DNA from: Candidatus Hydrogenedentota bacterium | GTDB taxonomy: Bacteria; Hydrogenedentota; Hydrogenedentia; Hydrogenedentales; SLHB01 | Length of the DNA: 64,000 nucleotides | Assembly: GCA_963668025.2 (NCBI GenBank) | Contig: CAXXTH010000006.1 | Location: forward strand, 54,179 to 118,178 | Direction: 5' to 3' | In this document: piece after piece, positions 34,364 to 53,770 of the stretch | Layout: the number at the start of each line of letters is the position of its first letter | How positions within the stretch are numbered: the stretch's first letter is position 1 | Position numbers and translations under genes: made by a program | Notes under the pieces: model-generated | The model's database searches: none | What the model saw: only the letters and a program-made list of their open reading frames with translations | What the model was told of the DNA's origin: nothing

Positions 34364-34441
34364 CGGGGCGTAGCGCAGCCCGGTTAGCGCGCCTGCTTTG
34401 GGAGCAGGAGGCCGAGAGTTCAAATCTCTCCGCCCCGACCA
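34364..34441 (+). tRNA. tRNA-Pro(TGG), integration target
   Basis: CGGGGCG...CGCCCCG-ACCA, anticodon arm CCTGC-TT-TGG-GA-GCAGG, GTTCAAATC T-loop. Confidence 0.96.
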
Positions 34442-34508
34442 TTTAAAGCCTTTAACCCCAATGACTTATGGAAATGGGTTCTTGGGGCTTTTTCTTTGGC
34501 CCCGCTTT

Positions 34509-36893: not shown

Positions 36894-36899
36894 GATTCA

Positions 36900-37143: not shown

Positions 37144-37473
37144 TCAGGCACCGGGATCGGCGGGGGTGTCCTGGGTGCGGGGCGTGAAGTTCACGCAGGT
37201 CTCGCATTTGCTGCATACCGGCGGCATGAGTCCGGCGCGGGCCAAGTCACCTATCACCGCTGCTTCGATGTACCGCCGCTCGATTTCCGCCGTGATGCGC
37301 TCGAGCTCGGCTTTTCCAGCGGGACGGCATAGGGCCACTGCGGCGGCCTGCACGTGGCCATATCCCGAAAGCTCGGCGGCCTGCTTGATGGTCATGCCCA
37401 ACGCGCGATACATGGCCAGCAGGTGCAGCCTCGGGCTCGCTGGGGCGGGTTTATAGGGCGGTTTATTCGGCAT
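37144..37473 (-). CDS. Small-terminase-like HTH protein with C-terminal CxxCxxC
   Basis: 'TIKQAAELSGY...A...L.RP' resembles the TerS N-terminal HTH. Homolog starts at 56632. Confidence 0.55.
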   Translation of the reverse strand: MPNKPPYKPAPASPRLHLLAMYRALGMTIKQAAELSGYGHVQAAAVALCRPAGKAELERITAEIERRYIEAAVIGDLARAGLMPPVCSKCETCVNFTPRTQDTPADPGA

Positions 37474-37900
37474 GGTGGGTGTCTCCTTCCAATGCATCGC
37501 GCTTGATAGCCTCGATGCTCCTGCTATCGTACGGGTGATGTTCTTCCCCTGAGACCGTCGTTACACGGCTCCGCTTCTGAAGCATGCCTGAAGGGTGGCG
37601 GTCCAGCACCGTTTCCGCCGCTCGCAACCGCACGCTTGCCGGGGCGCTGGGGTCGTTCAAAATCGCCTCGATGACGGCCAGGGCTTGGCGGAGCATATCG
37701 TCAAGCTGCCCCATGCTCGAGACCCTCAACATCAACGCGGAGTCTTCAAGCTGCCGCCGGTACTCGGCCACGGCGGGCTTTTCGCATATGGCGTCTATCT
37801 GCGCAACAGTCTTACCGGTCGCAGCGGCCACGGCGCGGCGATTGCCTCCGGTGGCGTATAACAGCCTGGCCACGTGTTTATGCCATGCGGCGGGCTTCAT
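37463..37900 (-). CDS. Small-terminase-like protein (HTH plus 'VRLRAAETVLDR' helix pair)
   Basis: HTH, 'ALAVIEAILND...VRLRAAETVLDRHPSGM'. Homolog at 56622-57059. Confidence 0.6.
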   Translation of the reverse strand: MKPAAWHKHVARLLYATGGNRRAVAAATGKTVAQIDAICEKPAVAEYRRQLEDSALMLRVSSMGQLDDMLRQALAVIEAILNDPSAPASVRLRAAETVLDRHPSGMLQKRSRVTTVSGEEHHPYDSRSIEAIKRDALEGDTHHAE

Positions 37901-38115
37901 CGCGGAGCCTCCCATTGCTGCTCGAACCACTCCGCTTCCAACTGCTGCAAGAGACGCCGTTCATGAAGCATGGCGTTTCTGGTCATCGCCAACTGCGTCA
38001 AGACAATCGGGTCGCCCAAATCGTCCTTCAGTTCAGTGAAAATCTCCATCATGTCTCTGTCGTAATCTCGTAAACGCTCCTGCGAGTTGATGATTTCTTT
38101 CGTGATACTTTTCAT
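37897..38115 (-). CDS. 72-aa helical hypothetical protein
   Basis: GGAG RBS, ATGA overlap with the next gene. Disrupted homolog in element 2. Confidence 0.65.
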   Translation of the reverse strand: MKSITKEIINSQERLRDYDRDMMEIFTELKDDLGDPIVLTQLAMTRNAMLHERRLLQQLEAEWFEQQWEAPR

Positions 38116-38220
38116 GCAATCGCTCCACGTAACGTCCACTTTACATATCGTGAAAAACACTGGGTTTGCGGGTCGAGCCTGGGGGTGATATACACCTGGG
38201 GTCAAACACCGGTGCGAAAA

Positions 38221-38613
38221 TCACGCCCCTTTTGCATTCCCCTCGGCTCTCGGCTGCCCAAACATTCCGCTCGGGTGCCTGTCCAGCAGCGCAATAACAA
38301 TTTGCAGCTTTATTCCGACGGGCGTTTCCGGATCTGACAACGTCTCATCGAGTTGAGCCAGGCCGAGGTCGATTGCCTCGTTCAGTCGCGTAACCGTGGC
38401 GGCCCAAAATGTCTCACCAGTGGCGCGTAATTCGCGTATCTTCTCCCGGATGGGCCAGTGCTGGAGTATCTGTTCCACCTGAGATGGTTCCAGTTTGACC
38501 ATGTGTGCGATCTCGAACTCGCTTAGCTGATAGTTCATTGCCGCCAGTTGCGCGATTTCTCGATGGACAGCAGGCGCGTCCTCGAAGTGTGCGTACTCGA
38601 AATTACTGTTCAT
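38221..38613 (-). CDS. Small-terminase-like protein, paralog of 37463-37900
   Basis: Shares 'LxDP..P....L......LDRHPSGM'. Homolog at 59134-59526. Confidence 0.6.
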   Translation of the reverse strand: MNSNFEYAHFEDAPAVHREIAQLAAMNYQLSEFEIAHMVKLEPSQVEQILQHWPIREKIRELRATGETFWAATVTRLNEAIDLGLAQLDETLSDPETPVGIKLQIVIALLDRHPSGMFGQPRAEGNAKGA

Positions 38614-38652: not shown

Positions 38653-38760
38653 AGTGACGTTAGTGACGCAAGTGACATGACTTTCAGTAAAGTCCCCTTA
38701 TGATAGAGTTTCTAAGGAGAGTTTATGGAATGTTGTGTCACTAGCGTCACTAGCGTCACT
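38653..38760. other. Putative replication origin (iterons) of element 1
   Basis: AGTGAC x3 at 9-bp spacing (38653, 38662, 38671) and inverted GTCACT x3 (38737, 38746, 38755) flank an AT-richer core right after the primase stop. Confidence 0.75.
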
Positions 38761-40192
38761 CATCGGTTAATATTCCTAATCCAATCCATAAGCGCTTGCC
38801 GCCGGTGGCGCGGTATTCATCGAAACCTTGCGATTGAAGATACTCGCCAAACCGGCGTTTGCTTACGGCGGTTTCACCGGCATCTGCGCACCATTTCTCA
38901 TATGCTGCATATACATCCGCTTTTAGCGTTTGGCAGTGGGATTGTCGCAGACAACACTCCGCCAGAAAGCGGCCTACGCCATCCTCATGTAGCCGATATT
39001 CGGATGTTGCGGCGGTCACTTCCTCGGGTGCTTTTAAACCTTCCGCCAGATAGGCGCATGCGCCTTCGACAAGCCAGTTCAAGACGCCCTCAGCCTCGTT
39101 TGATATAAGACGCTCCTTCAATTGACCGTCAACGCGGTCCTCAGGAATCGTCTGGGTGAAAGGAATAAGGCGTACGCGACGCCAGATGGCTAGGTCGGTT
39201 CCTTTAATCTTAGGGCGATCATTTGTGGCAAGCCACAGCACGTGAGTAGGCTCGAACTGAAACGGCGATTGATACAATTCGCGTGCTACAATTGGGTCTC
39301 CGCCACACATAGCTTTGACGCGCGCCTCGTTCAATTTATGGCCTTCGCCGGTCTCTATACTCGTCAAGAACCGTAGGCCGTACAACTTCGCAAGGTCGGG
39401 GCTCGGGCCATTGCTTGGGCGGTTATCGAGAAGTAGCTCAGGAGGGCATTGTCCTGCGTAGCCATCCCCCATAATTCGCTGGAGCACGTTCAAGAAGGTG
39501 GACTTCCCGTTGCGGCCTTTGCCAAAGCAAATGAAAAACACCTGCTCCGCCGATGTTCCGAGTAGGCTATACCCGGCGGCCTTTTTCACGAAATGGCGCA
39601 AGGCTGGGCTGGGGAAAATATCCTCCAGGAATCGCTCCCATGTCGGGGCGGGCTTTCCTTCGTAATAATCGTACGGGATGCATTTCGTGATGTAATCGCT
39701 CTTGCCGTGGTCTAATACTTTAGGTAACGAACCTTGCGGATTCCCGAAGTCTAGCGTGCAATTTTTGAAATTAACCTTCAATGGCTGGACGTCGAATTCG
39801 GCCACTGTCATAGACATATACGCTTCTGAGATTTTCAAAATCGCGGACACTGTGGCGGCGGTCTCACACTTACGGGCAAATGCTAGGAGCCAACTGACAA
39901 GTTGAGTCGGTTCACCGTCTCGGGCGTACTGGCCTGCCAAGTCCCTGAAGTGTTGGCCTACGCATTCGATACACATCGAACGCACTTGCGCCTCGTTGCA
40001 CGCCCAGTGGGTGCCCGTCCATGCCAGCCAACCCCAGCCGGAAACGAATCGCACATAAGAACCGCATGCGTTCGCAAACACGCGCGATCCACTGTACTCA
40101 GTGCATAATTCACTGCGTCGGAACTCCATAGAGTCGGTGGGGCCAGGGCGCTTGCGGCGGCGGGCTTGTTTTAGATCAATGGCCTCAGCCAC
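38756..40192 (-). CDS. P4-family/D5-like primase-helicase (SF3)
   Basis: 'WLAWTGTHW', Walker A 'GKGRNGKST', 'GGDPIVARELY', 'ATNDRP', 'AIWRRVRLIPF'. Confidence 0.92.
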   Translation of the reverse strand: MAEAIDLKQARRRKRPGPTDSMEFRRSELCTEYSGSRVFANACGSYVRFVSGWGWLAWTGTHWACNEAQVRSMCIECVGQHFRDLAGQYARDGEPTQLVSWLLAFARKCETAATVSAILKISEAYMSMTVAEFDVQPLKVNFKNCTLDFGNPQGSLPKVLDHGKSDYITKCIPYDYYEGKPAPTWERFLEDIFPSPALRHFVKKAAGYSLLGTSAEQVFFICFGKGRNGKSTFLNVLQRIMGDGYAGQCPPELLLDNRPSNGPSPDLAKLYGLRFLTSIETGEGHKLNEARVKAMCGGDPIVARELYQSPFQFEPTHVLWLATNDRPKIKGTDLAIWRRVRLIPFTQTIPEDRVDGQLKERLISNEAEGVLNWLVEGACAYLAEGLKAPEEVTAATSEYRLHEDGVGRFLAECCLRQSHCQTLKADVYAAYEKWCADAGETAVSKRRFGEYLQSQGFDEYRATGGKRLWIGLGILTDE

Positions 40193-40448
40193 GGGGCTCG
40201 TCCTTGAATGGATCTGCGGGTGTCACACGGTTCGAGTCGATGAAAGCCCGCAAGTCGGCGAGATCGTATCTGATCGCGCGACCCACCGTAACGTGTGCAA
40301 TATTGATGTGGCCTGGAAGGTAGCCCTCAAAGCGCCTTTTTCTAAGATAGTTCGAAGAAACCCCCAGGATTTTGGCGGCTGTTTTCGTATCGACTAATTG
40401 CGGGCTGTTCAGATTGTCTGACATATTCAAGCTCCTAACGTTTGCCAC
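40185..40448 (-). CDS. AlpA/excisionase-like HTH protein
   Basis: 'LVDTKTAAKILGVSSNYLRKRR...GRAIRYDLADLRAFI'. Start may be 40424. Confidence 0.8.
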   Translation of the reverse strand: MANVRSLNMSDNLNSPQLVDTKTAAKILGVSSNYLRKRRFEGYLPGHINIAHVTVGRAIRYDLADLRAFIDSNRVTPADPFKDEPRG

Positions 40449-40526: not shown

Positions 40527-41627
40527 TTATGCAGATTGTTTTGACGAACTAGATATGTAATATCCAGCGATTTCAGAATTACCCCTGCTGGGAGGAATGT
40601 TAACTCCATGCTTGCGAAGGTTCGCTACTGTACGAGACACACTGGATTGATCCAGCGATTTATCTGAATCGTCGGCATGAGCTTCGTCATAGTGCTTAAT
40701 GATGTCTACATGTGTGATTGGGCCATGGTCCGCTATCATTTTGCATATGAAGCTTTCCCTTTCCGACAGCGGCGTTCCGTCTGGTGCGAATCTGTCTCCG
40801 GGCTTCCACTGGTGCGGCGCGGCGGCCTCCTCCGACTCCTGTGCCACGGTGGCGGGCGCGGGGAGCGGTGCGGGTGTGTAGAAGTCGCTGAGCCATTGAG
40901 TGTGCAGGATGCACCGCTGTATCCATGCTACCGCCTCACTGGTACGGATACCATCATTGACGATCTGCGGCCCCGTCGATAGCAGTTCACGATAAGTGTC
41001 GGACTGGTTGATATTCGCAGTTTTTGGGGCTCCTTCAAGTGAATGGTAATATTGCCACGGATCCACAAGCACCTGGCATAGGGTAACGATCTCTAATACT
41101 GTCCACCATGCACGGTCCGTCAAGTATTTCTCAAACCACGTCTTAATGTGTGCCAGAACAATGGGCGGCGGCGCGGGCATATCCTCGGGTTGAGGCGTAT
41201 CAAACCATGCAGGAAGTTTTTGGCCGGACGCTTCAGCCCACAAGATGAAGTCTGTCTTTAAGGTGAGTACCCGCAGATGAGAAATGATGGGCAAACTTGG
41301 ATTAATGGCAGCCCGCTTGTGAGCGATTAACCAGCGGGCGGCGGCGTCGAATTCGGGCGCTTCCCACAAAAGGGCATCGGGTACGTTGTCGTAAATACAT
41401 GCCCGTAAATGAGGAGTTGAAAGCAGATCTCGAAGTACGAAATGAGGAACGAGTGTTTCTTTTCTGGGGTTCTGTTTAGGGGTATCATCTGGATTTTCCA
41501 GCACCAGCCGCTCCTTGTGAAGCATTCCCGTGAAAAGGACGAGGGGAATAGGCTTTTCCCGGAGATGAAAACTATTGTATTCGGCAATGGTTGGATCTAA
41601 GTTTTCGGCGGTGCGTTTCTTTGGCAT
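40527..41627 (-). CDS. Hypothetical protein with C-terminal winged-HTH
   Basis: 'LSERESFIC...DQSSVSRTVANLRKHG...GYY'. Confidence 0.65.
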   Translation of the reverse strand: MPKKRTAENLDPTIAEYNSFHLREKPIPLVLFTGMLHKERLVLENPDDTPKQNPRKETLVPHFVLRDLLSTPHLRACIYDNVPDALLWEAPEFDAAARWLIAHKRAAINPSLPIISHLRVLTLKTDFILWAEASGQKLPAWFDTPQPEDMPAPPPIVLAHIKTWFEKYLTDRAWWTVLEIVTLCQVLVDPWQYYHSLEGAPKTANINQSDTYRELLSTGPQIVNDGIRTSEAVAWIQRCILHTQWLSDFYTPAPLPAPATVAQESEEAAAPHQWKPGDRFAPDGTPLSERESFICKMIADHGPITHVDIIKHYDEAHADDSDKSLDQSSVSRTVANLRKHGVNIPPSRGNSEIAGYYISSSSKQSA

Positions 41628-41742
41628 TGCGTGATCCCTTCTGTGGGTCGAGCGGCAGGCTTTCAGCGGGATCACTCTTACTCACCCGCCATCTCGTGCG
41701 CCGGGCCGTTGCAATCGGCTACCAGCTACCCAAACTAATTAA

Positions 41743-43112
41743 GGGTGCTCCCTCAATATGATAACCTCAATTGACCCCGTGGCGGGCCACGTGTTGCCAG
41801 AACTGGTCCCAACGGCCCTCGGTCATCTCCAGCGACCTGAGCGCGATCACCGCGCTCGCGCCCGCTTCCTTCCACCGCATCCCGGAGCATGCCAGGCGTT
41901 GCTTGATCAGCGTCTTGCACGCCGCCTCCGTCACTCCGCTGCCGATGGGAAGGCGCTCCGCCGTGTGCCGCCAGTATTGCATCTTCGAGCGGTGATTGCC
42001 GAAGTAGGTGATCGCCTTGCCGAGTTCCTCGCGGCAAGCCTGGGCGCGCACGCTTGGCAAGCTCGCCTTCATCTCCTCCAGCAAGCGTCCGGCTGCGCCC
42101 CTCGTGTGCTTCAGCCGGTGACTCCAGTCCGCCTCCCACTCCCGGCGGCGCGCGCCATGACCGTGAATCGCCTCCGCCGCCTTCCCCACGTATTCCCGCG
42201 CGTGATAGAAATCCAGCATCTGCCGGTCCGTGCGCGGCGTCAAAAACTTCCAGTTGTCCGGCGCGCCGTCGGCCAGGCCGATATACAGCGCCGCCGGGTG
42301 CCTCGCCCTCACGCGCTCCACCTCGCGGCCGAAGCGCTCGAGGAAAGTCTGCTTGCCGTACTCGGGCGATGCGCCCGCGTAGATCGTGTGCAGCCGCTCC
42401 CCGTCCTTGTCGTACAGGCTGATGGACCCGCACATCGCCTGACGCCAGCCGTCCTCCCTGAGCAGCATGCAGGTGCCGTCCAGGCCCACGGCCACCGACG
42501 CGACCGGCCTGTCCAATTCCGGCAGCTCGTACTCCCACGTCTCCTCCCTGGCCTGCGCCAGGGCGCCCACAAAATCGCCGATCTTCTTCACATAGTCGCG
42601 CGAGATTGCGCGGCCTGTCGACTCGAGCAGGTCGCGGCGCATGACATCGGCGCCCATGCGGGAGTATTTTCCGCTGACGATCCGGGCGTAGCGCGGCGTG
42701 GCGTTCATGACCATTCGCGCGTCCCGCTCCAGCGGGCAGAAGGTGCGCCCGCCCGTGGCGGTGTTCTGGTAGACGTGCCGCTCGACGCGGACCGGGCCGT
42801 GGGGCGTCTCGTAGGTCTGGCCGAAGCGCCCCTTGGTTTTGAAGGTGGTGGCGCCGACGCGGATGGGCGAGCCGTCTGTGTCGAAACGGGCCAGGGCCTC
42901 GGCCATGACTGCGCGCCCCACCCCGTTCAGGGCCTCCTGGACCGCCTCCTCCATATCGAGCATCGAACCACGCAGCCTCAGCGAGAAACTCACCTCGAAC
43001 GTGTCGCCGTCGCGCCTTGTCACCATCGCTGCCATCGGTCTTCCTCCGTTAAGGGTCCGGCATACTTATCGACCCGACACGAGGATTTCTTTAGCATTCT
43101 GCGGGAACACCC
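41743..43112 (-). mobile_element. ISKra4-family insertion sequence
   Basis: Terminal IRs GGGTGCTCCCTCAATATGATAA and GGGTGTTCCCGCAGAATGCTAA. 8-bp target duplication CTAATTAA at 41735-41742 and 43113-43120. Confidence 0.9.
41767..43035 (-). CDS. ISKra4-family transposase
   Basis: 'VGLDGTC', 'LADGAPDNW', 'LDFYHA', 'PIGSGVTEAACKTLIKQRL..SGMRW'. Confidence 0.92.
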   Translation of the reverse strand: MAAMVTRRDGDTFEVSFSLRLRGSMLDMEEAVQEALNGVGRAVMAEALARFDTDGSPIRVGATTFKTKGRFGQTYETPHGPVRVERHVYQNTATGGRTFCPLERDARMVMNATPRYARIVSGKYSRMGADVMRRDLLESTGRAISRDYVKKIGDFVGALAQAREETWEYELPELDRPVASVAVGLDGTCMLLREDGWRQAMCGSISLYDKDGERLHTIYAGASPEYGKQTFLERFGREVERVRARHPAALYIGLADGAPDNWKFLTPRTDRQMLDFYHAREYVGKAAEAIHGHGARRREWEADWSHRLKHTRGAAGRLLEEMKASLPSVRAQACREELGKAITYFGNHRSKMQYWRHTAERLPIGSGVTEAACKTLIKQRLACSGMRWKEAGASAVIALRSLEMTEGRWDQFWQHVARHGVN

Positions 43113-43127
43113 CTAATTAAATTGTAT

Positions 43128-46100
43128 TTATTTTGCAGAGGCTTGTCGAGACATTGTATGCATTCGCTTCCACACCTGGCCGATCATTTTCGTGCGGGCG
43201 GCGGCGCGGGTGCGGTCGATGGCCTTTTCTAGGGCTGCCATGTCTCCCTCGGATGGATGCTCCACCCGTGCAGGTGTCGCCCACCTGGCCAGCGATTTCC
43301 GGGCGGCTTCCCCGGCTTCGGCGCAGAAATCGTGATACTCGCTATCCGTCAGGTACTCCCGCTTCCCCGCAATCGTGACATACGGTTCCGGGGCGCTGAA
43401 CCACCGCACGTCGTCGGGGTGCGCGTTGTTCCAGTTTGTAATCAGCCTGTCCAACTTCACCGCCGTGGCGTCGCGTCCTTCCGGCGTCATATCCTGCATG
43501 GGGCTCAACAGCCGGAATAGGAAATCCGACGCGGGCCGGTCGAACGGCTTGGCCTTCTGCATCTCCTCACCCCAGAGCGTGACCTTCGGCCTGGGCTCGT
43601 CTACACCCGTGGCTTGATAACGTACTCGTGCGCCCCACCGCGCCCACCTATCGCCGTGCTCGCCCCAGACTCGAGACTCCCGATACATGTCATCAAGCCG
43701 GGCTTCAGTGCCTTTGACGATGTTCGGCACAAACGATGTGGCGAAGTTCCCGGCCCAGCGCGCTGCCCGTTCTGCGAGCCCCGCGCCGCTCCGTGCATCG
43801 AATAAGTCCATGATGTCACTCAGTGAACGGACAATGGATTTATCTCGTATGATGGACAACCAATGCAACATGACAGAGGCCGCAGCGTCCATGACATCCT
43901 TGCCGTTCTGGGCGCTGCGGAATTCTGTCAAGCCATCCACCAGCATGGACAAAGTCGTACTCACTGGTTCGAGTTCACGATACGAATACCACCTTCCATC
44001 GATGCGTATCGATTGTGGCGGGGCCGTCCGCTGCGCCATCTCGCGTTGCCCCTTGGGTGTCGCACCGAACGGCATCGTGCCGGTGATCGGCGGGTCGTCA
44101 TCGTCTCCGCCGAATGCCGAGAGCAGGCCCGCCGTGACGCCGACGGCCATAAGCCCGACGAGTTGTTCCGAGAGATCGCGCACAAGCAAGTCCGGGGTCT
44201 CATTCTTCGTGACCAACCGGGTAAGCATAGCAAACGCGCCAAGCGGCGATTTGCGGACGCCCGTCTTTGCGAGGTTCACCCAGGTCTTGAAGAATGGCAC
44301 CGCGTGGCGCAGGTGTATGACCTCCCGAACCCGGCTTAGCTCCTTACCAATCGGGCCAAGGTCAGACTGGAACGTCAGTACACTGGCCTTGTTCATTGCG
44401 ATTGACCACGCCCGCGATGTGCGGTCTGACACGAGCTCTTCTATCCGCTTGGCCTTCGCTTCGCCGGTCAGCCCTTCGCCCCGGGCAATACGGAAAGCCA
44501 CCACACCCACCTCCATATTGGCTATCAGCGCGTTGAAAAATTCGTCTTCAGCCACCAACGAAGTAACCGATACGCCCCGGAACGCCCGATACGGCGCACG
44601 CGCCATCACCCTAAGTTTTGCTTCGACGCCCTTCACTGCGAAGAACTGCGAAAGAGGTATCGTGCGAACGGCCCGCGTTCCTTTGGCGTCTAGCTTTGAA
44701 CGTTCCTGTCCAAGGATTTCATCGCTGAACACTGGAGCGTCATGCTTGAACGCCATGATGGATGCTCGTATCGCAGCAGGAGCACCGGCCAGCACGCCAC
44801 GCCAAAGGTGCTTGAGCTCGTCGGGGTGTAGCGTCGGTCGGGTCTCGGGAGCTCCCTCGCCACCAAGCGCCATGATAGTAGAGTTAACTAAGGCTTCGGC
44901 TGGCCGCTGTAGCAGATAATCAACCCCCATGGAAACCGCGTTGCCCGCTATGTTCCGCACATGTGTGACCGGCAGGCTCAGCATGGACATCAGGCGGAAC
45001 TCGAACACAGCGTCCCAAATGGAGGCTTTTGTTGCGCCGATGACATGCAATGCCTCATACCGTTTCGCGGGGTCTTTCATTTCGTCGGCGAGGTTCTGCA
45101 CGTCAATGCCCGCCTCGCTGAGATGCTTCAGGATGGATTTGTACATCTTCCGCCGAAGGATCTCTACGTCAGCAACCTTCCCAGTCCGTTCGGCAAGCAC
45201 CTGCAAATTCCGGGAACTGCCGATGCGTTCACGCGCTCGTTCCAATAGTTTCTGTGTCAGCTCTGTGGCCGCGCTTTGGATGTTCTCTACGGCGCGTTCC
45301 TCGGGTGTACGGAGTGGGTCAACCCGCCGCTGCAATGCCGCGCCTGCTTCGCCGCCCAGCAAGTCATAGGCTTCCTGAAGCGCGATGTGTCTGTCAATAT
45401 CCGCGTCGCCCTGGGTCTCGAAGGCTTGCTGTGCAAGGTCATGCGTGAGACGTTTTGCCGCTTCCATCTCGTCGTCAGTCAGGGGCGAACCGCTACGCGC
45501 CTTACCGAGCACGTACGCGTACAGCCGGTCCGGTTTGGCCAGCATCGCCGTCACCCGCGCCGCGCTCTCTGGGTTTGAGTATTTCCCACGTCCAGCTTCT
45601 TTCAAGACTTCCCGAGACACATCGACCTGGTTGCGCGCCTCGGGTGTCAGGCCGGGGTTTGCCCACTCTGGGCGGCCAATGGCTGGCCCAGCATCGAATT
45701 TTTCTTCTTGCGTTCCTGGCCCTCCCGTGCTACCCTGGCTACGGAATTCCTCCCGTCGAGAGTCCGGGATCGCTGAGGCGGGAGGCGTCGGCTTGGGGAC
45801 GCTCGGACGCCGCCCATGACCGTACGCGTCATCTGGCGCTGGTCTGCGCCAGGTGACCTCCATATCATATTGCCTTCCTTTTCCGCGCCCTGGAAATTGA
45901 GTGATTAAACGCCCCCTGTTTACCTCGTGATTTATGACGTATTTTTTCGGCGATACTACCACCATATGCTTCGTACCATCCCGATATTCACGAACATAAA
46001 TCCAGTTCTTCTTCTTGTTGTCCCATAATTTGGCTGCCGCATTAGCAAGTGTATCTGGCACATTCGGCATCCATGTTGCTTTGTCTACACTGACAGTGAT

Positions 46101-49100
46101 TCTGTTCGTGTAGGTCACCATATGTTTTGCTCGATTCTCAAGCGTGCCCCGGTCTGGGTTCTTCAACAACACATTCACGCCATCAGCCGCCGTCACATGC
46201 TCCGGCCACTTATCAAACTCGATCTTTGCCCTTGTCTTAATGACCTGATTGTGTCCCCGAACATCCAGCCGCTTAGGTTCCACGTCATCCCGGGGGAAGT
46301 CATCGATATCCCGAAGCCGAGCCGAGTACCGTTCTTCATCGGATATCTCGCCCGAGTCCGAGCCTTCGCCTTCCACGCCAAGTTCCGCCACCTTTCCCTG
46401 TGCCGCAAGCTGCACGTTCTTCCGATACTGAGGGGCCACACGCCCATACTTCGACAGCCTGCCCAGCACCCGCCGTATCCACTCCGCCACGCGCCGCACC
46501 CAAGACCGATACTGTCCAGTCGCCTTGGTCTTCATGATGTTGCCCGGCTTAAAGAACTCTGCCCGCACATCACCCGCCCACTGTTCATGAGCCGCACGTT
46601 GCTCTTCTGGCGCCAGATCCGTCCAATTCTTCCCCACCACATGCTGTGCCGCCATATCCCGCACCGAGTCATTCGCCAGGTCCAGCACGGCATGGCCCGC
46701 GATTTCGTGTATCGCCGTCCCGGGATTATGCCCAGCATAGATCCGCGCGAACGCCCCTACCACACGGCCCGTGGCGTCCAGCTCGGCAGCCTCGACGCCG
46801 CGCACGGTGTCACCTTCCTGCAAGAACGTCTTATTGGCTTCCTCTTGCGTGATGTTCCGTAACTGATTCGTGATTTCAACCTGCATGTTCATCGGCACGT
46901 TCATACTGGCCAGATAGGCATCCAACGCATCCGCGCTGGCATCGTCCATGATACCGGCCTGCCGCGCCACGCCGACCGCCGCACGAATCTGATCGAGGCC
47001 ACGGCCCGACACCTGTATATCAGGTGCCCCGGGTTGGCGCGCTGTGGCGGGTGATGCTTGGCCAACGTCGAACGGAAGCTCGCCGGTCTGGTAGTCTCGC
47101 TCCATCTCCTCGGGTGTATAGGCTTTCCGCTCGAGCTGAGCAATCACCCGGTCTACCGCCGCCGTGCTGCTCCCTTCCTGCTTCAGCACTGCCCGCTGGC
47201 CTTTCAACTTCTGGGCCGCTTGTTCCTTGCCGCCATACAGCGATATGGCTTGTTGGGCCGCATCGTCGCGTGGAACACCTTTATCGAGCAGAAATACCGT
47301 TTCGCCCGCTACGCGCTGTGCCGCATGCGATTCCTGAGCATCGTATAACGCTTTGGCTTTCTGGTAGCTCGGGCTTTCCTTACGGACGACCGCGCCCACA
47401 TCGAGCGACTTATCCGATTCCACAACCGTGGTATCGCCGTCCTGCAACACCGTGTCCCCGGACGCTTCCACATCCGTGACCTTGTGCCACTCGCCCTTTC
47501 GATACACGAGGTCTCCCTCGGCAAGGTCTTGAAGCGGCGTCACGACGCCATAGTCATCCGGTACGTTCGGCCCCACCTGGTATTTCGATGAACCAACCAA
47601 TAGACTTCGAAGCACTGACGGGTCCGCGTCGGCCGACGGGATAAGCCCCATGTCCGCCGCCTCAATCAACGCCCGGTCCCACGTAAATGTCCCGTTATTG
47701 CGCCAATACCCCGGAGGAAGCTTTCCCCCGAAGTCATCGTCGGTAAGTTTGGCCCCGCCAATCTTCTTGGTCGGCTGAATGCCCGCGCGCCGCATCCGTT
47801 GACGAAACTCTACAAGTGGCTCATTGCGTTCCTCGGCGGTTTTAGGGCGGCGCTCCGTGGGTTTCACGCCAAGCATCTCGGCGGCCACGTCCGTCACATA
47901 GTCCTTGCGAGTGGCAGGCGGCTCGCCGATATCACTGGACATTTTTTGTCCGCCACTGGACATTTTTTGTCCCTGAGCTTCCACTGGTGAACTCTTTGCG
48001 CCTTCGCGCCTTTGCGTGAGTTCCCCTTGTGGCCCACTTTCAGCCGTTTGTGGGCTGCTAGGCTGCGCCGCCGCTGGCGGCTGCGTAACGACAGGGGCTA
48101 CAGGCGCCGCTTCACCCACAGAAACGGGTTGCTTCGCGCCCTGGGTGGCCTGGGGCGTCTGAATCGCCCGTTCTGCGTCGGCTTGTGTCATGCCTTTAGG
48201 GCCAACAATCACCACTGGTGACTCACCGGCGGAAATGCCTATCGCCGTACTCGCTCCTTGCTGCTCCGCGCGCGCCAAGTCCGCGCCTGTGGCCAGTGTC
48301 TCAACCGTGCCGTCTGGCTTCACATGCAGTGTGCGGTACGGAAGCGCCTGATGCCTCTGTTTCAGTTCGCTTGCTCCGCGAACTCCAAGTCCTGGCGTCC
48401 CTGGTACACTGAACGCCACGGCTTCCGCTCCAAGCTGTTTAGGCGTCGTTACCTCGTAGGTGTCCGTAAGGCCAAGCATGTAGGACAGCATCTTACCGGC
48501 TTCCTCTTCGCCGATTTCCGGGATTATCCCCTGGAACGAAGCGCGCCGCGCCGCTGCACGGATCATGCCGTCTACCTGCTGCTTCGGAAGCGCCTTGCTG
48601 ATAATCGCTTCCCGGACCTTTTCGACCCGCTTCACACCCGGCAGCCGCCGGAATCCTTCGCCGAACCGTTCTGACCACACATCAACGAAGCTGTCCCCGA
48701 TGCCTTTCAACACGGCTTCGGACCATGGCGCGCCGGGCGAAACCAATTCCCCTTGGCCTTCTTGGCTGAACTGAATCTGGGGCGTGGCGCGCTCGAGGGC
48801 GTTCTCGATGGACAGGTTTGGCATGGCTGCCGTCTGCGCCGCTGCACCGGCAGCGCTCTCCGCTGTACGAAGCGCCGCACGCGCCACGGTGCTGCGAGTA
48901 AGAGCCTTCGCGCTCTGTTCTCCCACAAGCCGTTCAACGCCGCCCGTGATGGCCTTCCGGGCCAACGCCTTGCCTCCTGTATACGCGCCGCCGGTCAACA
49001 TGAACTCGCCGATGTATGCGGGCATGCGCGTCAGGATGTCGCTCACCATGTACCCGAAGTCTTTATCACGATACTGGCGCTCCCAGTTGTCTTGTAAGGC

Positions 49101-49613
49101 GGCATTGTCGTCGTCTGTGGCGCTGCCTTCCTGGAACCGCCGAGCGGCTTGGTACAACTGTGTGGCTTGCGGTAGGTCTCCGACAAACGGCACCATCCGC
49201 GTTGCGCCCCATCCGCCCATCTCTTTGAGGTTGTCCACTGCCGTCATAGGCTGCGACATACGAAGCGCCCGTTCGTTGAACTTCGTCTGGCGCGCTATGT
49301 CTTCGGGAGTCGGCGCGGGGATGGGTCCGGTCGCCTGCATCGTAGGCCGTGGCCGCCCTGGTTCCGCAAGCTGCTCCGGCGTGTACATCGAACCGAGGCC
49401 TTGGGACTCGAGGGCGGGAGTGGGGGCGGATGATGGTGGCCCGTCCGGCACGTCACTAAGCCGGATGGTTCTCTTGGGCTGTATGATGGGAAGTGAGTCA
49501 CCCTCTGGGATGTCCTGATACCGAATGGTCTTCTTCGGTTGTATCACGGGCAGAGAATCGAATGGATTCGTGACTGGTCCCTCGGGAACGTCCTGATATC
49601 GAATAGTTCTCAC
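43128..49613 (-). CDS. 2161-aa large polyvalent protein, putative internal virion (ejection) protein
   Basis: N-terminal TIRYQD repeats and NPFD, G/A-rich amphipathic block, HEIAGH zincin-like motif, embedded nuclease-like segment, C-terminal 'PF.KT..N..K.G...SP...YREL.EP' region resembling LPD38-type domains. Confidence 0.7.
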   Translation of the reverse strand: MRTIRYQDVPEGPVTNPFDSLPVIQPKKTIRYQDIPEGDSLPIIQPKRTIRLSDVPDGPPSSAPTPALESQGLGSMYTPEQLAEPGRPRPTMQATGPIPAPTPEDIARQTKFNERALRMSQPMTAVDNLKEMGGWGATRMVPFVGDLPQATQLYQAARRFQEGSATDDDNAALQDNWERQYRDKDFGYMVSDILTRMPAYIGEFMLTGGAYTGGKALARKAITGGVERLVGEQSAKALTRSTVARAALRTAESAAGAAAQTAAMPNLSIENALERATPQIQFSQEGQGELVSPGAPWSEAVLKGIGDSFVDVWSERFGEGFRRLPGVKRVEKVREAIISKALPKQQVDGMIRAAARRASFQGIIPEIGEEEAGKMLSYMLGLTDTYEVTTPKQLGAEAVAFSVPGTPGLGVRGASELKQRHQALPYRTLHVKPDGTVETLATGADLARAEQQGASTAIGISAGESPVVIVGPKGMTQADAERAIQTPQATQGAKQPVSVGEAAPVAPVVTQPPAAAQPSSPQTAESGPQGELTQRREGAKSSPVEAQGQKMSSGGQKMSSDIGEPPATRKDYVTDVAAEMLGVKPTERRPKTAEERNEPLVEFRQRMRRAGIQPTKKIGGAKLTDDDFGGKLPPGYWRNNGTFTWDRALIEAADMGLIPSADADPSVLRSLLVGSSKYQVGPNVPDDYGVVTPLQDLAEGDLVYRKGEWHKVTDVEASGDTVLQDGDTTVVESDKSLDVGAVVRKESPSYQKAKALYDAQESHAAQRVAGETVFLLDKGVPRDDAAQQAISLYGGKEQAAQKLKGQRAVLKQEGSSTAAVDRVIAQLERKAYTPEEMERDYQTGELPFDVGQASPATARQPGAPDIQVSGRGLDQIRAAVGVARQAGIMDDASADALDAYLASMNVPMNMQVEITNQLRNITQEEANKTFLQEGDTVRGVEAAELDATGRVVGAFARIYAGHNPGTAIHEIAGHAVLDLANDSVRDMAAQHVVGKNWTDLAPEEQRAAHEQWAGDVRAEFFKPGNIMKTKATGQYRSWVRRVAEWIRRVLGRLSKYGRVAPQYRKNVQLAAQGKVAELGVEGEGSDSGEISDEERYSARLRDIDDFPRDDVEPKRLDVRGHNQVIKTRAKIEFDKWPEHVTAADGVNVLLKNPDRGTLENRAKHMVTYTNRITVSVDKATWMPNVPDTLANAAAKLWDNKKKNWIYVREYRDGTKHMVVVSPKKYVINHEVNRGRLITQFPGRGKGRQYDMEVTWRRPAPDDAYGHGRRPSVPKPTPPASAIPDSRREEFRSQGSTGGPGTQEEKFDAGPAIGRPEWANPGLTPEARNQVDVSREVLKEAGRGKYSNPESAARVTAMLAKPDRLYAYVLGKARSGSPLTDDEMEAAKRLTHDLAQQAFETQGDADIDRHIALQEAYDLLGGEAGAALQRRVDPLRTPEERAVENIQSAATELTQKLLERARERIGSSRNLQVLAERTGKVADVEILRRKMYKSILKHLSEAGIDVQNLADEMKDPAKRYEALHVIGATKASIWDAVFEFRLMSMLSLPVTHVRNIAGNAVSMGVDYLLQRPAEALVNSTIMALGGEGAPETRPTLHPDELKHLWRGVLAGAPAAIRASIMAFKHDAPVFSDEILGQERSKLDAKGTRAVRTIPLSQFFAVKGVEAKLRVMARAPYRAFRGVSVTSLVAEDEFFNALIANMEVGVVAFRIARGEGLTGEAKAKRIEELVSDRTSRAWSIAMNKASVLTFQSDLGPIGKELSRVREVIHLRHAVPFFKTWVNLAKTGVRKSPLGAFAMLTRLVTKNETPDLLVRDLSEQLVGLMAVGVTAGLLSAFGGDDDDPPITGTMPFGATPKGQREMAQRTAPPQSIRIDGRWYSYRELEPVSTTLSMLVDGLTEFRSAQNGKDVMDAAASVMLHWLSIIRDKSIVRSLSDIMDLFDARSGAGLAERAARWAGNFATSFVPNIVKGTEARLDDMYRESRVWGEHGDRWARWGARVRYQATGVDEPRPKVTLWGEEMQKAKPFDRPASDFLFRLLSPMQDMTPEGRDATAVKLDRLITNWNNAHPDDVRWFSAPEPYVTIAGKREYLTDSEYHDFCAEAGEAARKSLARWATPARVEHPSEGDMAALEKAIDRTRAAARTKMIGQVWKRMHTMSRQASAK

Positions 49614-50938
49614 TGCGCCACCTCTACTTCTTCCCCGTTCATGAGGATGATGGGATTCCCGCTCGGAGACCTGCCGATGACCGGGTTTTTCTTGATGTAT
49701 TGAGCCGTCGGAGTGGGTGCCGCCGCTTGCGTGGGAGTCGCCGACTGCTGTGTCGCTGCCGGTGCTGCTGCTGGCTGCTGTGTCACTGCCTGCTGCGACG
49801 TGGCCGTCATTTGCTGGGCTTCCTGGCGTCGGGCGTCGGGCAACAAGTAATCCGATGAACCACCCTCAATAAGCCCCAGTGACACCAGGTCGTATAGCAC
49901 GGCGGGGTCTTCCACACCCAGCAGTGGCATGGCTTGCTTTGCGAAGGCGTATGGAATTTTTACTGTGCCATTCTCATCTACGGCGGCAATGTCACCGTAA
50001 GCAGTTGCATACAGCTTGCGTAATCGGTTCATGACGGCGTCTGCCGGTACAGGCTTCCGAACTCCACCCGTGCCCGTGGGCTTGCTCGGCCCGATGTCCT
50101 GAACCACCTTGCCGGTCTGGTCGAGCACTGCGGTGTGGTATTCTGTTACGCCATTCACCTGCACAGGGAAGTTATCCCGCACCACGTTTTTCGTTATAGC
50201 TGGCCCGGCGGGCTCGAACGTCCCATCATCATGCACCCAGCCAGAGCCGGATTTGGTCGTGCCATCCGCGTCCTGGTAGTAAACCTCATCCATCCACTTT
50301 GGGACCGCCGGATTCTCGTATACCGACGACACCGAGCCCGTATCTGGATTGAACTGCGCAACATCGGTGCCCGGGGCCACATTGAACGGCTTCGACATCT
50401 GCGTGCGGAGTTTCCACGCCTCGTGCTGCCGCTTGGACTCCGCTTCCTGCGCATCGTAGTCAGCCTTCATCTGCGCGGTTTGCGCTTCGATCTTTCGTTC
50501 ATCAAGGTGGTTTTGCAACTGTGTCTTATACAACCTCAACTCCTGTTTTCGGTCCTGGGCTTTCTCGAACTGTGCGGTGCGTTCCTGCTGTTGCTGCGCT
50601 CGTTGCGCCGCCGCATCCTCGTTCGACTGCTGAACCATATTCAGTGTGGCCGTGGTCTGTTGGGGAGACATCCCCATCACATCCTTAGCGCCCAAATTCG
50701 GGAGCGTGCTGGGCGGTGGCGTCATCTGCTTGGTCAATCCGAATAACTGCGCCATCTGGCCGACAAAGCCATTTCCATACGGATTCGGCGCAAGTTCAGG
50801 GCTCTCCATCTCCAGCAGTTGCGCCTCGATCACGTTCGGCGGCGTGCCCTCGGGATATTCAAGCGTCTGTCCCGTGCTCGGTATTCTGACCTGTATGCCG
50901 CGCCCTACTCGTGGAATCATCATCGATATTACCTCCAT
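49610..50938 (-). CDS. Q/A-rich coiled-coil protein, putative DNA-transfer/ejection protein
   Basis: 'QVRIPSTGQTLEYPEGTPPNVIEAQL' N-terminus, long Q/E/K coiled coil, 'NPDTG' motif. GTGA overlap with the giant gene. Confidence 0.55.
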   Translation of the reverse strand: MEVISMMIPRVGRGIQVRIPSTGQTLEYPEGTPPNVIEAQLLEMESPELAPNPYGNGFVGQMAQLFGLTKQMTPPPSTLPNLGAKDVMGMSPQQTTATLNMVQQSNEDAAAQRAQQQQERTAQFEKAQDRKQELRLYKTQLQNHLDERKIEAQTAQMKADYDAQEAESKRQHEAWKLRTQMSKPFNVAPGTDVAQFNPDTGSVSSVYENPAVPKWMDEVYYQDADGTTKSGSGWVHDDGTFEPAGPAITKNVVRDNFPVQVNGVTEYHTAVLDQTGKVVQDIGPSKPTGTGGVRKPVPADAVMNRLRKLYATAYGDIAAVDENGTVKIPYAFAKQAMPLLGVEDPAVLYDLVSLGLIEGGSSDYLLPDARRQEAQQMTATSQQAVTQQPAAAPAATQQSATPTQAAAPTPTAQYIKKNPVIGRSPSGNPIILMNGEEVEVAQ

Positions 50939-51044
50939 TCAGAATGAATTTACTCCGCGAATATTGTAGCGCGTATCGGCCTTATACCAAGCCCCTGGAA
51001 AATGAGCGCGCCCAAGCATGTGGACGCGCTCTCGGTGGGGGAGG

Positions 51045-51416
51045 TTAGGCTTCGGCTGGCTGTGGCTCGGGGATAGATGCCTCTAAGGCGAACGCCAAAG
51101 GAATATACGCACCTAGGTCCGCAAGACGTGCAACCTCGATGGATTCACCGTTCACCCCTCGGGCAACGAGCTTGCCGCCTTCGCTAAACAGCAGCATCCC
51201 CTCTGGCGTTTCAAAGTATACGAACTCTCCTTCATCCCAGATCTCCTTGAGCATGAGCGGTCCTGTCTCGACCTCGATAATTTTGTGTATGAGTGCCCGG
51301 GCCTCGATGGCGGGCCGGAGAAAGTGAAGTGAGTCGCCATGGTGCTGCTCGCCCAATGCGGCAAGATAGGCCTTTTCGGCCAGGCTGATTTCTCGTACCG
51401 GCATCATGGTGTTCAC
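51045..51416 (-). CDS. Hypothetical protein
   Basis: Co-oriented, with GTGA overlap to the upstream ORF. Confidence 0.6.
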   Translation of the reverse strand: MNTMMPVREISLAEKAYLAALGEQHHGDSLHFLRPAIEARALIHKIIEVETGPLMLKEIWDEGEFVYFETPEGMLLFSEGGKLVARGVNGESIEVARLADLGAYIPLAFALEASIPEPQPAEA

Positions 51417-51667
51417 TCCTTTCCCGTTTTAGAACTGTCATGCAATGTAGCTTGCGCGATATCGAGTTGTGTCCCACAATACGAGCAGAATTGGAATGGC
51501 GGTCCCATCGGCATCAGCTTGCATCCGCACGCCGGGCAAAGCTGGTTGTAGAAGATGTCGTTCTCCATGTCGGGGCACCAACCGTCCTTGTCTAGCCAGA
51601 TTCGACTGAAGTCGAGTACATAGGCGGGCGGATTGGTAGGGACAGGTTTGGTTTCATTGGTAGGCAT
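51413..51667 (-). CDS. Small Zn-ribbon protein
   Basis: CPACG...FCSYCG. AAGGA RBS. Confidence 0.6.
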   Translation of the reverse strand: MPTNETKPVPTNPPAYVLDFSRIWLDKDGWCPDMENDIFYNQLCPACGCKLMPMGPPFQFCSYCGTQLDIAQATLHDSSKTGKE

Positions 51668-51737
51668 GATGCGTTTTCCTTACGGAGGCGGGTATACTTC
51701 TACGGACGGCGGAGCCTTCAAATCCGCTGCTCGCATC

Positions 51738-51773
51738 GGCCTCTGGGTGCTTGCGGCACTCAGGGGCCTTTTT
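51738..51773 (+). terminator. Intrinsic terminator on the strand opposite to the element's genes
   Basis: GGCCTCTGGGTGC-TTGCG-GCACTCAGGGGCC-TTTTT. Confidence 0.7.
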
Positions 51774-51905
51774 ATGCTTTCACCGGCCACGATGGCCGGG
51801 TCATGCCGTTATGTATTCTCGTCCCTGCCCAAGCCGGATGGAGCCGCCAAGGGTCGGGCGCAGGATGTCGGTTAAGCCTTTGATGGGCATGGCTAGGAAT
51901 CCTTT

Positions 51906-52166
51906 CTATGATAATGGAGGGAAAAGCGCGCGTGTTTCTTTCATGGTGCGTGGGGGGCGTGGCTTCTCGGACTCATCGCCTGCCAGCCACTTCAAGACGC
52001 TTACGCCTGATATGCGTTCGACGGAATAGCCTGGAATTTGCACGCGGTGCAGGTGGCCCATGTCGGCGAGGGCCTTGACGGCTCCGTGGCGTATGCAGAG
52101 CCTGCGGGCCACTTGAAGTGTGGTGTACAGGCGGTCTGGTTCTATGGGATCTCCGATGATCTTCAT
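51906..52166 (-). CDS. Excisionase-like HTH protein
   Basis: 'RLYTTLQVARRLCI...V..L...G.L...RISGVSVLKWL'. Directly after the integrase. Confidence 0.7.
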   Translation of the reverse strand: MKIIGDPIEPDRLYTTLQVARRLCIRHGAVKALADMGHLHRVQIPGYSVERISGVSVLKWLAGDESEKPRPPRTMKETRALFPPLS

Positions 52167-52218: not shown

Positions 52219-53484
52219 TTATGCCCCTTGCTCCTTCGCGGTTCCGGGGAACGCCAGTACGTTATCTGTGGGCGTGTCCAGCAAGGCCACGGCTTCCCGC
52301 GTTGCTCCGGGAGCCAGGTGGGCATACCGTTGCGTCAGGCTGATGTTGCTATGGCCTAGCAGAGTCATCACGGTGTAGAGGTCCACCCCTGACTGAACCA
52401 GCTTCGATGCGAACGTGTGGCGCATGTCGTGAAACGTGAATCCCTTGATACCGGCATCGGCAAGCAACGTTTCCCATGCTGAGTTGATATCATGCATGGC
52501 CTCGCCGTCCGGCCCCTCGAACACAAGCCCCGTAGTAAGGCCTGTGCATGCCTGCCACCCCTTGAACGCGGCCATGGCGCGGGCGTTGAGTGGGATGCGG
52601 CGGACAGTGCGAGTCTTGGCAAGGCGGGCCTCGATGGTCAGCGTAGCGGCCTCGAAGTCTACGCTCTCCCATGTCAGGGTCATCAACTCCCTGCGTCGAA
52701 CGCCGGTGTTCAGCACGATCTCGATCATGGGCTTAACATAGTCGGCATAGGAACCGTCGAGGGAGACCGGTGCAGGGTAGTTCCGTTTTTCGCACCATTC
52801 GCGGTGTGATTCGCGGGCCTCTCGAAGGCGGGTCTCTCGCTTATCGATGGCCTCAAACAGTGCGGCCTCTTCTTGGGGCGTCAAGTAGCGTACGCGGTGC
52901 GGGTCCATTTCTTTGGCTTTGAACTTCGCTAACGGATTTTCTGTGATGAATTCACGGGCCACGGCGAAGTTCAGTACGGTCTTGAGATAGCGGCAATACC
53001 GGGAACCGGCGCGTGGCTTGCCTTCTTTGTTGAGGCGTGCGCGGACCTTCTCCACGGAGAACAGCTTGATTGAATCCAGGGGCTTGTCCATGAGTTCACC
53101 GAAGTTGGCCCGTATCGCGCGCATCTCTTCAGCCAGGGATGGTTTGCCTGCGTTCACGGTCTCGTATTCGGTAAGCAGGTCGGCCAGTGTGGCGATGTGA
53201 CGCCGGGCCTCCTTGCGGGCCTCAGCAGGGTCTTCGCCACGTAGAGCATCGGCCAGCAAGCGGCGTGCGTGGTCACGGGCTTGGACAAGCGTCAGTATGG
53301 CGGCGTCTCCCACCTTGAGCATGACGCGCTTGCCGTCTTCGCGCCGATACTTGATGTAGTACGTCCGGCTTCCGCTCGTTTCGGTGCGTACGAGGAAACC
53401 TGACATCTCGGAATCGAACGCATCGAAGCGCTTAGCGCCGGGCTTGAGGGTATCCACGGTCTTCTGCGTAAGCTTCGCTTTCAT
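52219..53484 (-). CDS. int: Tyrosine integrase with N-terminal arm-binding domain
   Basis: 'KLTQKTVDTLKP...FD....GF.VR..SG.RTY', catalytic R (TGVRRRE), K, HDMRH, LLGH, RY. Confidence 0.95.
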   Translation of the reverse strand: MKAKLTQKTVDTLKPGAKRFDAFDSEMSGFLVRTETSGSRTYYIKYRREDGKRVMLKVGDAAILTLVQARDHARRLLADALRGEDPAEARKEARRHIATLADLLTEYETVNAGKPSLAEEMRAIRANFGELMDKPLDSIKLFSVEKVRARLNKEGKPRAGSRYCRYLKTVLNFAVAREFITENPLAKFKAKEMDPHRVRYLTPQEEAALFEAIDKRETRLREARESHREWCEKRNYPAPVSLDGSYADYVKPMIEIVLNTGVRRRELMTLTWESVDFEAATLTIEARLAKTRTVRRIPLNARAMAAFKGWQACTGLTTGLVFEGPDGEAMHDINSAWETLLADAGIKGFTFHDMRHTFASKLVQSGVDLYTVMTLLGHSNISLTQRYAHLAPGATREAVALLDTPTDNVLAFPGTAKEQGA

Positions 53485-53509
53485 GGCAGCGGTTCCTTTG
53501 CTGGGATTC

Positions 53510-53528
53510 TGTATCCCGCCTGTATCCC
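53510..53528. promoter_or_regulatory. Putative integrase arm-type sites, right end of element 1
   Basis: TGTATCCC-GCC-TGTATCCC, matching 34509-34527. Confidence 0.7.
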
Positions 53529-53656
53529 AGCGAAAAGATACCACTAGCAACATCAGGTGTCAAGAAGAATCTATAAATATGCAAAAAGCCCAATAAAATC
53601 GACCTATTTTCAGTGTATGACTGTATCGCATTGTTACTTGGAGAAGGTGCATTTTT

Positions 53657-53770
53657 CTGCTTTGGGAGCAGGAGGCCGAGAGTTCAAATCTCTCCGCCCC
53701 GACCATTTAAAGCCTTTAACCCCAATGACTTATGGAAATGGGTTCTTGGGGCTTTTTCTTTGGCCCCGCT
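53657..53770 (+). repeat. att junction: 114-bp exact direct repeat of 34393-34506 (49 bp of tRNA-Pro 3' part plus 65 bp of shared element end)
   Basis: CTGCTTTGGGAGCAGG...CGACCATTTAAAGCC...TTGGCCCCGCT is identical at both positions. Confidence 0.95.

Follow-up and report, generated by a model that had tools for sequence, protein, structure and literature searches.

A candidate phage satellite with a podovirus-type internal-virion gene pair in a Hydrogenedentota genome

Described phage satellites parasitise the capsid, the packaging motor (terminase), or the tail of a helper phage. The phage-inducible chromosomal islands (PICIs) and P4-like satellites, as portrayed in the main text of de Sousa et al. 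2023 (PMC10085698), are small tRNA-integrated elements with an integrase, an AlpA-type helix-turn-helix (HTH) protein, a primase-replicase, a TerS-type gene, and defence-type accessory genes, and lack genes for the capsid, TerL, and the tail. Here, we analysed a 64,000-nucleotide stretch of DNA (referred to as the window) from a Candidatus Hydrogenedentota bacterium (assembly GCA_963668025.2, contig CAXXTH010000006.1, positions 54,179 to 118,178), in which an integrated element, element 1 (window positions 34393-53770), resembles these satellites in all of these respects. It has a site-specific integrase and flanking attachment (att) repeats, both an AlpA-type HTH protein and its own primase-replicase, and, in the proteins p155 and p130, candidates for the hijacking of packaging that were matched with marginal E-values. 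It differs from the PICI/P4-like satellites of PMC10085698 in that 40% of it is a pair of genes for internal-virion/polyvalent-type proteins and in that its dependence on a helper is only presumed. The element 1 backbone proteins have no relatives in described families, and the main text of that paper uses none of the words "ejection," "injection," and "internal." Nor did the literature searched describe a satellite with internal-virion or ejected proteins.

Phage polyvalent proteins are predicted to be packaged and injected with DNA (Iyer et al. 2017, PMC5512222). The large protein of the pair is like them in being a giant and apparently multi-part protein, several homologues of which bear LPD3, LPD22, LPD23, ART-PolyVal, ddrB-ParB, or C5 methylase domains. 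It differs in that it is encoded in a capsid-less element, whereas the proteins presented in that paper are from phages, prophages, and conjugative elements; the copy in the window lies between backbone genes, whereas relatives of it do lie among phage virion structural genes. Capsid-forming PICIs, in the description given in bioRxiv 10.1101/2022.09.08.507074, are also satellites with phage-derived virion genes of their own, but they encode capsid and packaging proteins and steal tails, whereas element 1 would borrow the capsid and the tail and bring internal, ejected proteins. We put forward, as an evenly balanced proposition, that element 1 belongs with the PICI/P4-like phage satellites and brings ejection and effector proteins of its own.

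The gene pair and its relatives in podoviruses

The pair consists of an open reading frame (ORF) for a 442-aa protein (49610..50938, minus strand) and, downstream of it, one for a 2161-aa protein (43128..49613, minus strand). Together they occupy 7811 bp and overlap at GTGA, in which the large ORF starts (GTG) and the small ORF stops (TGA). The open frame of 6.5 kb is far beyond chance. An earlier note on this DNA, made from the sequence alone, had described a translationally coupled pair making up about 40% of the element, with a Q-rich small protein and with TIRYQD(V/I)PEG repeats and G/A-rich helices in the large protein, and it had likened the pair to podovirus internal-virion and large polyvalent proteins. 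The overlap and a share of 40.5% agree with this description, as do a Q-rich, heptad-like stretch at about aa 95-185 of the 442-aa protein and, in the large protein, three repeats (TIRYQDVPEG, TIRYQDIPEG, and TIRLSDVPDG) within aa 3-58 and a G/A-rich helical stretch at about aa 195-265. The likeness to internal-virion and polyvalent proteins was upheld by the family, sequence, and fold matches given below. By contrast, the "LPD38-like" C-terminal region of that note was not recovered, as a Pfam search at E<=0.01 assigned the whole protein to no family and one at E<=1 assigned its C-terminal 661 aa to none.

The only family match of the large protein is to phrog_6651, "internal virion protein" (E 8.9e-17, aa 1683-1963). 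Using tblastn against 50,697 phage records, we obtained matches in 10 records, all within aa 1495-2108, among them Syn5 gp45 (E 2e-10) and, in Pelagibacter phage HTVC011P, "internal virion protein D." In Syn5, the gene order is the tail protein gp41, the internal virion/structural proteins gp42-44, gp45, and the tail fibre gp46, which places gp45 in the position of T7 gp16. The T7 proteins gp14-16 form a trans-envelope conduit. An AlphaFold2 model of the C-terminal 861 aa (31 sequences) had a predicted local distance difference test score (pLDDT) of 81 and a predicted template modelling score (pTM) of 0.81. Sixty BFVD entries matched this model at E<=1e-3, including polyvalent proteins and the "internal virion protein" of Pelagibacter and Synechococcus podophages, and among the top 50 of these fold matches, all named ones are phage or virus proteins. 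The module contains one strongly hydrophobic helix (aa 1818-1836) followed by a conserved DDDDPPITG. By these comparisons, the C-terminal ~860 aa (hereafter, the C-module) are homologous to podovirus internal virion proteins at the T7 gp16 position, Autographiviridae proteins included, and match the C-terminal module of phage polyvalent proteins.

The comparison with the T7 internal core itself, which the earlier note had called for, gave a different result. In Foldseek, the model matched no solved structure at E<=1e-3, the T7 core structure 9jyy_I reaching only E 0.25; VIA-align returned generic helical repeats only (best Z 6.6); and no PDB sequence, T7 gp16 included, matched the large protein. 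The pair is like the podovirus internal cores (T7 gp14-gp15-gp16 and Syn5 gp42-gp45) in the homology of its C-module to the Syn5 and pelagiphage proteins and in the gene arrangement of its relatives, but it differs from them in that neither its sequence nor its fold matches solved T7 gp16 significantly and in that no transglycosylase was recognised in the copy in the window.

As a whole, the large protein is of the polyvalent type. A word-index search identified 14 homologues of 1468-3585 aa, and the four best of those having a recognised domain bear LPD23, LPD3, C5 methylase, or ART-PolyVal. The middle part contains a candidate HEXXXH-type motif (HEIAGH, aa 977-982) and a domain that is common to a fragment of the gene elsewhere in the genome (on contig C18), to a prophage of another genome (G016), and to the homologue P0006; the fold model of aa 900-1310 was unusable (pLDDT 39). 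Pfam recognised no effector domain in this copy. Across 317 codons, comparison of the large gene with the C18 copy gave a ratio of nonsynonymous to synonymous substitution rates (dN/dS) of 0.21.

The arrangement of an upstream partner and a giant protein is widespread among relatives. In an IMG/VR scan, a relative of the large protein was encoded on 153 contigs, of which 80 were kept as loci, 7 of these having no room upstream. In 69 of the remaining 73 loci, an abutting same-strand ORF precedes the relative, with a median size of 440 aa. The locus profile searches used a 3-sequence alignment (A3), and scans of IMG/VR with single protein sequences gave no matches. Annotation of the neighbouring genes with Pfam and PHROGs was mostly blank, and 10 genome loci could be divided between prophage and island in part only, by their same-strand gene blocks. 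A metagenome scan returned 3 loci only and missed the 26-27-kb contigs that encode P0001 and P0003, the closest homologues.

Searching 1.84 billion representatives exhaustively with HMMER, we obtained 35 relatives of the 442-aa protein, mostly of 300-480 aa, with similarity over the N-terminal ~200 residues; in the ESM Atlas, the best score of the 442-aa protein was 0.86, to unnamed viral clusters. The profile of this family matches the ORF directly 5' of a homologue of the large protein in the phage locus L028 (E 1.4e-20), and in 3 of the 4 IMG/VR loci with a family member, that member lies directly 5' of a 2229-aa or 2760-aa protein; these giants match phrog_22602, "virion structural protein." With L028 included, the giant proteins that follow genes of the 442-aa family span 2229-3207 aa. 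The giant in locus L128 has a lytic transglycosylase, matching phrog_342 ("internal virion protein with endolysin domain") at E 4.8e-27, a further likeness to podovirus internal cores. The same giant begins (11033-11125) with the N-terminal motif of the 442-aa family, xVxxxxTGxxxEFPDGTP. In the window, this motif is encoded at 50810-50890, and the TIRYQDVPEG repeats of the large protein (aa 1-58, 49440-49613) resemble it; the shared N-terminal motif is a candidate signal for virion incorporation. Taken together, these relationships show the pair to be phage internal-virion/polyvalent genes, both of which belong to podovirus internal-virion gene blocks.

A discrete cassette in a family of small integrative elements

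The window is the final 64 kb of a 118-kb contig in a 6.1-Mb assembly of 24 contigs (genome 93.75% complete). Element 1 is bounded by exact 114-bp direct repeats. The left repeat, attL (34393..34506), begins within the integration target, a gene for tRNA-Pro (tgg) (34364..34441, plus strand; ARAGORN), and extends 65 bp beyond the tRNA 3' end, while the right repeat, attR (53657..53770), is also the start of element 2. Measured between the repeats, element 1 is 19.26 kb long. Element 2 follows in tandem and runs off the contig end (window base 64000); it shares the p117/p155/p130 module with element 1 and has a different replication module (AAA_25 and a DnaG-type primase). At least five further loci in the genome (G000) have integrases 32-43% identical together with backbone genes (p87, primase, p84/p123, and p155/p117), at C19:143.8-150.2 kb, C10:643.4-649.9 kb, C10:1045.4 kb, C17:217.1-219.7 kb, and C18:59.3-70.2 kb. 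These are members of a family of small integrative elements that resides in the genome and varies in content.

The C19 member of this family reveals the limits of the cassette that holds the pair. It shares p84, p123, p87, a p155-like protein, and p117 with element 1, and has 90 bp instead of the pair. Across p84-p123, the two elements are 88% identical at the DNA level (86% and 83% identity of p123 and p84, respectively, to their C19 paralogues), and 90 bp past the end of p123 in C19, the match resumes, at 97%, over the 37 bp that immediately precede p382 in element 1. Therefore, the pair is a discrete insert of ~8 kb (without the insertion sequence described below) that extends from the p123 stop to about 41732, and the pair-less paralogue in the same genome argues for an acquired cassette rather than a simple deletion remnant. 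The cassette sits in a variable slot of the backbone and has its own promoter-like site. On its 5' side, p123 is followed by a hairpin with a T-rich tail (ATTTT), the promoter-like site TTGGTA-16-TACAAT (50963..50990, minus strand; consensus match only), and a GGAGG before the start codon. The GC content of the cassette is 59.5%, compared to 54-57% for the backbone, a difference too small to argue for a separate origin.

The right cassette junction is bridged without differences by one contig of a sequencing run (49362-51351). At the other end, an ISKra4-like insertion sequence (IS) of about 1.37 kb (41743..43112; NCBIfam E 5.5e-57) begins 15 bp past the stop of the large gene and has TAATTAA on either side. 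The genome contains 20 further copies of it with 99.6-100% identity (at least 21 copies in all), indicative of a recent expansion; based on the target duplication and the near-identity of the copies, the IS is a recent simple insertion that left no deletion scar. No second full-length copy of the pair is present in the assembly. Because many diverged relatives are present in the sequencing runs holding the window, the genome was probably assembled from a mixed sample.

The backbone of element 1 also encodes two paralogous proteins, p155 (37463..37930, minus strand), with an N-terminal HTH, a helical core, and an LDRHPSG motif, and p130 (38221..38613, minus strand), which look like small terminases. 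When their joint profile was compared with 177,635 PDB sequences, the top two matches were the small terminases 6w7t (E 7.9e-4) and 7joq (E 4.9e-3), with matching length and collinear alignment through the LDRHPSG region. The profile also matches a 224-aa ORF in the phage record G138 (hhalign 96.4%, E 1.4e-9), 2.7 kb upstream of a portal gene and TerL (phrog_38, E 6.7e-37), as well as an ORF upstream of TerL in G134. In the ESM Atlas, p155 matched viral HTH clusters without names, and a word-index search with p155 gave 3 proteins only, 2 of them from the window.

One phage record, G134 (38 kb, containing L028), has homologues of the TerS-like, 442-aa-like, and giant genes together with its own TerL, and TerL was detected by phrog_2 in 3 of 5 viral records with relatives of the large protein. 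A full podovirus-like prophage (C15:77237-110991) with TerL, portal, and a phrog_511 internal virion protein is present in G016, a genome from the bacterial family to which the genome analysed here belongs. At the end of this prophage is a pair of 429 aa and 3082 aa; the 3082-aa protein has the middle domains (aa 499-1312) in common with the large protein, but not the C-module. The 429-aa upstream gene and the 1421-aa internal virion protein of this prophage have no similarity to the window proteins. Judged from these relationships, the cassette derives from the internal-virion gene block of a podovirus lineage, with the 442-aa protein in the gp15 position and the 2161-aa protein in the gp16 position, and was installed, intact, in a small capsid-less integrative replicon whose TerS-like genes are homologous to those of the same phage lineage.

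A proposed satellite function and rival explanations

We infer that element 1 is mobilised by a G134-like phage and that the pair is loaded into helper heads. In this scheme, a helper podovirus of the G134 lineage would infect the cell, upon which the element would excise and replicate, and its TerS-like proteins would direct the helper TerL onto element DNA. Both cassette proteins would be assembled into helper procapsids on the portal-proximal core. In the next infection, the C-module, with its hydrophobic helix and DDDDPPITG, would join the ejection conduit, and the N-terminal and middle domains could act as first-strike effectors for the entering satellite DNA. A more specific version, which we regard as conceivable though doubtful, is ejectosome piracy: the satellite would replace or supplement the helper core with its own gp15/gp16-type pair, with the N-terminal motif (xVxFPDGT; TIRYQDVPEG) serving as a procapsid tag, and the resulting particles would inject a conduit and effectors of the satellite's choosing. 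If so, satellite entry, anti-defence ability, and possibly recipient range would be decoupled from those of the helper.

Several observations weigh against a satellite that brings its own ejection proteins. TerL and portal were not found in the 93.75%-complete genome with phrog_2, PF03237, PF03354, phrog_332, and the G016 prophage proteins (one marginal phrog_2 match, E 9.6e-4), so any helper must be external, and the contigs of four public runs, which cannot show excision, gave no sign of it, the joints present in them being accounted for by the C19 and C18 paralogues and by the end of the stretch compared. The TerS match is marginal in E-value; in Foldseek and VIA-align, the similarity of the C-module to solved T7 core proteins is not significant; neither Pfam nor PHROGs recognised a lytic transglycosylase in the large protein; and element 1 has two genes of the internal-core type, not three. 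The left cassette junction crosses the IS that has 20 other copies, and it rests on the assembly, the TAATTAA duplication, and one 35-letter IS-less joint (run X1). Finally, the arrangement is known from a single genome, and p123 was found in 1 of 133 genomes of its class, this genome only.

Decayed relatives of the large gene belong with these points. The copy on C18 (C18:478695-479717) is a 340-aa ORF next to a transposase, in which an internal deletion fuses aa ~60-87 to aa 983-1303 (84% identical), and the copy on C17 (C17:34288-35652), an ORF truncated to 450 aa, has 33% identity to aa 1296-1744. These copies imply repeated encounters of the lineage with such genes. In G071 (C11; L024 17899-18951, L025 274-4287), a 1337-aa protein with ART-PolyVal and a C-module accompanies an integrase and two small ORFs, with metabolic host genes directly after them, and this locus is a minimal island or a remnant; in G037, a relative on a short contig is followed by a host-like gene. 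Decayed copies and tiny islands beside host genes show that such genes can persist as junk. They are consistent with the alternative that the cassette is a hitch-hiking relic, caught from a podovirus by recombination in a past co-infection, intact but useless, and bound to decay like the C18 and C17 copies, as are the landing of an IS 15 bp from the large gene and the occurrence of the arrangement in one genome only. Nevertheless, we consider a relic unlikely, given that the 2161-codon frame and its overlapping partner are both intact, that dN/dS relative to the C18 copy is low (0.21), and that the cassette is precisely delimited and bears a hairpin, a promoter-like site, and a GGAGG ahead of the start codon. 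Moreover, short contigs from a wastewater metagenome run of a different study are 86-97% identical to parts of both genes, which indicates that the pair persists in related populations.

Alternatively, the pair might be interference or defence cargo that co-assembles into the virions of an infecting podovirus to spoil them, or that blocks DNA entry, and its slot a defence hotspot. The pair does occupy a variable slot of the backbone, the other variable slot holds an RmrA-like/PIN-like pair where element 2 has a Gp49/HigB-like toxin with an HTH protein, and defence genes are known in satellites, as noted in PMC10085698. However, PADLOC matches neither protein of the pair, and the complete polyvalent architecture, in which a conserved delivery module is combined with a long N-terminal part that is under purifying selection, exceeds what a poison subunit would need. 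In addition, we know of no precedent for an interference or defence system of this type. We judge this explanation to be quite improbable.

The earlier note had reasoned that element 1 would be a simple deletion remnant if related elements retained capsid and portal genes. This is so for the phages that carry relatives of the pair, as in G016, G134, G138, and the 3 of 5 viral records with a phrog_2 match, but not for the element backbone, which occurs on C19 (p84, p123, p87, p155-like, and p117) without the pair. The absence of a virion shell that the note had pointed out stands as far as the tools used can see: among the 16 element ORFs scanned, capsid, portal, TerL, tail, and lysis families had no matches in Pfam, PHROGs, and NCBIfam, of which Pfam and PHROGs cover this group's phages poorly, and the largest ORF without an assignment is 382 aa. 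A temperate podovirus that lost its head and tail genes is also conceivable in a genome in which IS elements are very active. Yet the IS beside the pair has a target duplication and thus made no adjacent deletion, element 2 has a related regulatory and TerS-like module, and the order of integrase, small genes, pair, replication, and TerS-like genes is unlike that of the G016 prophage and Syn5, making a degraded prophage very unlikely.

We attach hardly any probability to a phage-independent explanation, in which element 1 would be an integrative mobilisable island whose polyvalent protein is delivered by a conjugative route. Although polyvalent proteins are reported in conjugative elements too in PMC5512222, family scans of the element ORFs detected no relaxase, type IV secretion system, or ArdC-type domain. 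TerS-like genes are present, the C-module is in the podovirus gp16 position, and the named proteins in the top 50 BFVD fold matches are all from phages or viruses.

If element 1 does load its own ejection proteins, as we propose, a parasite can set the contents of transducing particles and not DNA alone, and polyvalent "first-strike" proteins would be a currency between phages and satellites, with a bearing on how mobile elements cross defence barriers. The combination of integrase, primase, TerS-like genes, and an internal-virion pair with no TerL also offers a concrete pattern by which new families of satellites could be sought in phyla that have been little studied.

Other genes of element 1 and its surroundings

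All element 1 genes are on the minus strand. In the direction of transcription, the order is integrase, p86, p84, p123, the 442-aa ORF, the 2161-aa ORF, and the ISKra4-like IS, followed by p382, p87, the primase-helicase, p130, p102, p155, p117, the XRE-M78 gene, and the PIN-like gene. The tyrosine integrase (52219..53553) has an arm-binding domain (Pfam Phage_integrase E 1.9e-29; Arm-DNA-bind_3). The backbone proteins p86 (51906..52166), p84 (51413..51667), and p123 (51045..51416) lie between it and the cassette. On the far side of the cassette, p382 (40527..41675) has a possible C-terminal winged helix (weak eWH match, E 0.0089), p87 (40185..40448) is an HTH_17 protein of the AlpA/excisionase type (Pfam HTH_17 E 2.8e-7), and the replication protein is a D5_N/DUF5906/Pox_D5 primase-helicase (38756..40192; Pfam D5_N E 5.1e-23; phrog_1156 E 2e-109). 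The backbone protein p102 (37897..38205) is encoded between p130 and p155, and p117 (37144..37497) is common to element 1, element 2, and the C19 element.

Between att and the p117/p155 module, the two tandem elements hold different two-gene systems, which gives this slot the look of a hotspot for defence or toxin-antitoxin genes. In element 1, the slot holds an XRE HTH and M78 peptidase protein (35766..36893, minus strand; Pfam HTH_3 and Peptidase_M78) that is RmrA-like, of the Rosmer antitoxin/regulator type (PADLOC RmrA E 1.6e-10), and its partner at the left end, a 188-aa weakly PIN-like protein (35199..35765, minus strand; Pfam PIN E 0.0039, below the cut-off). In element 2, the same slot holds the pair of Gp49/HigB-like toxin and HTH protein (55139-56025). 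Element 2 also has IS insertions at 57153-58706 (DDE), 60308-60748 (IS200-like), and 60803-62022 (IS630-like). Just upstream of the tRNA gene, a 1268-aa TIG/IPT-domain protein with a C-terminal membrane anchor (29265-33071) is host cargo unrelated to the element.

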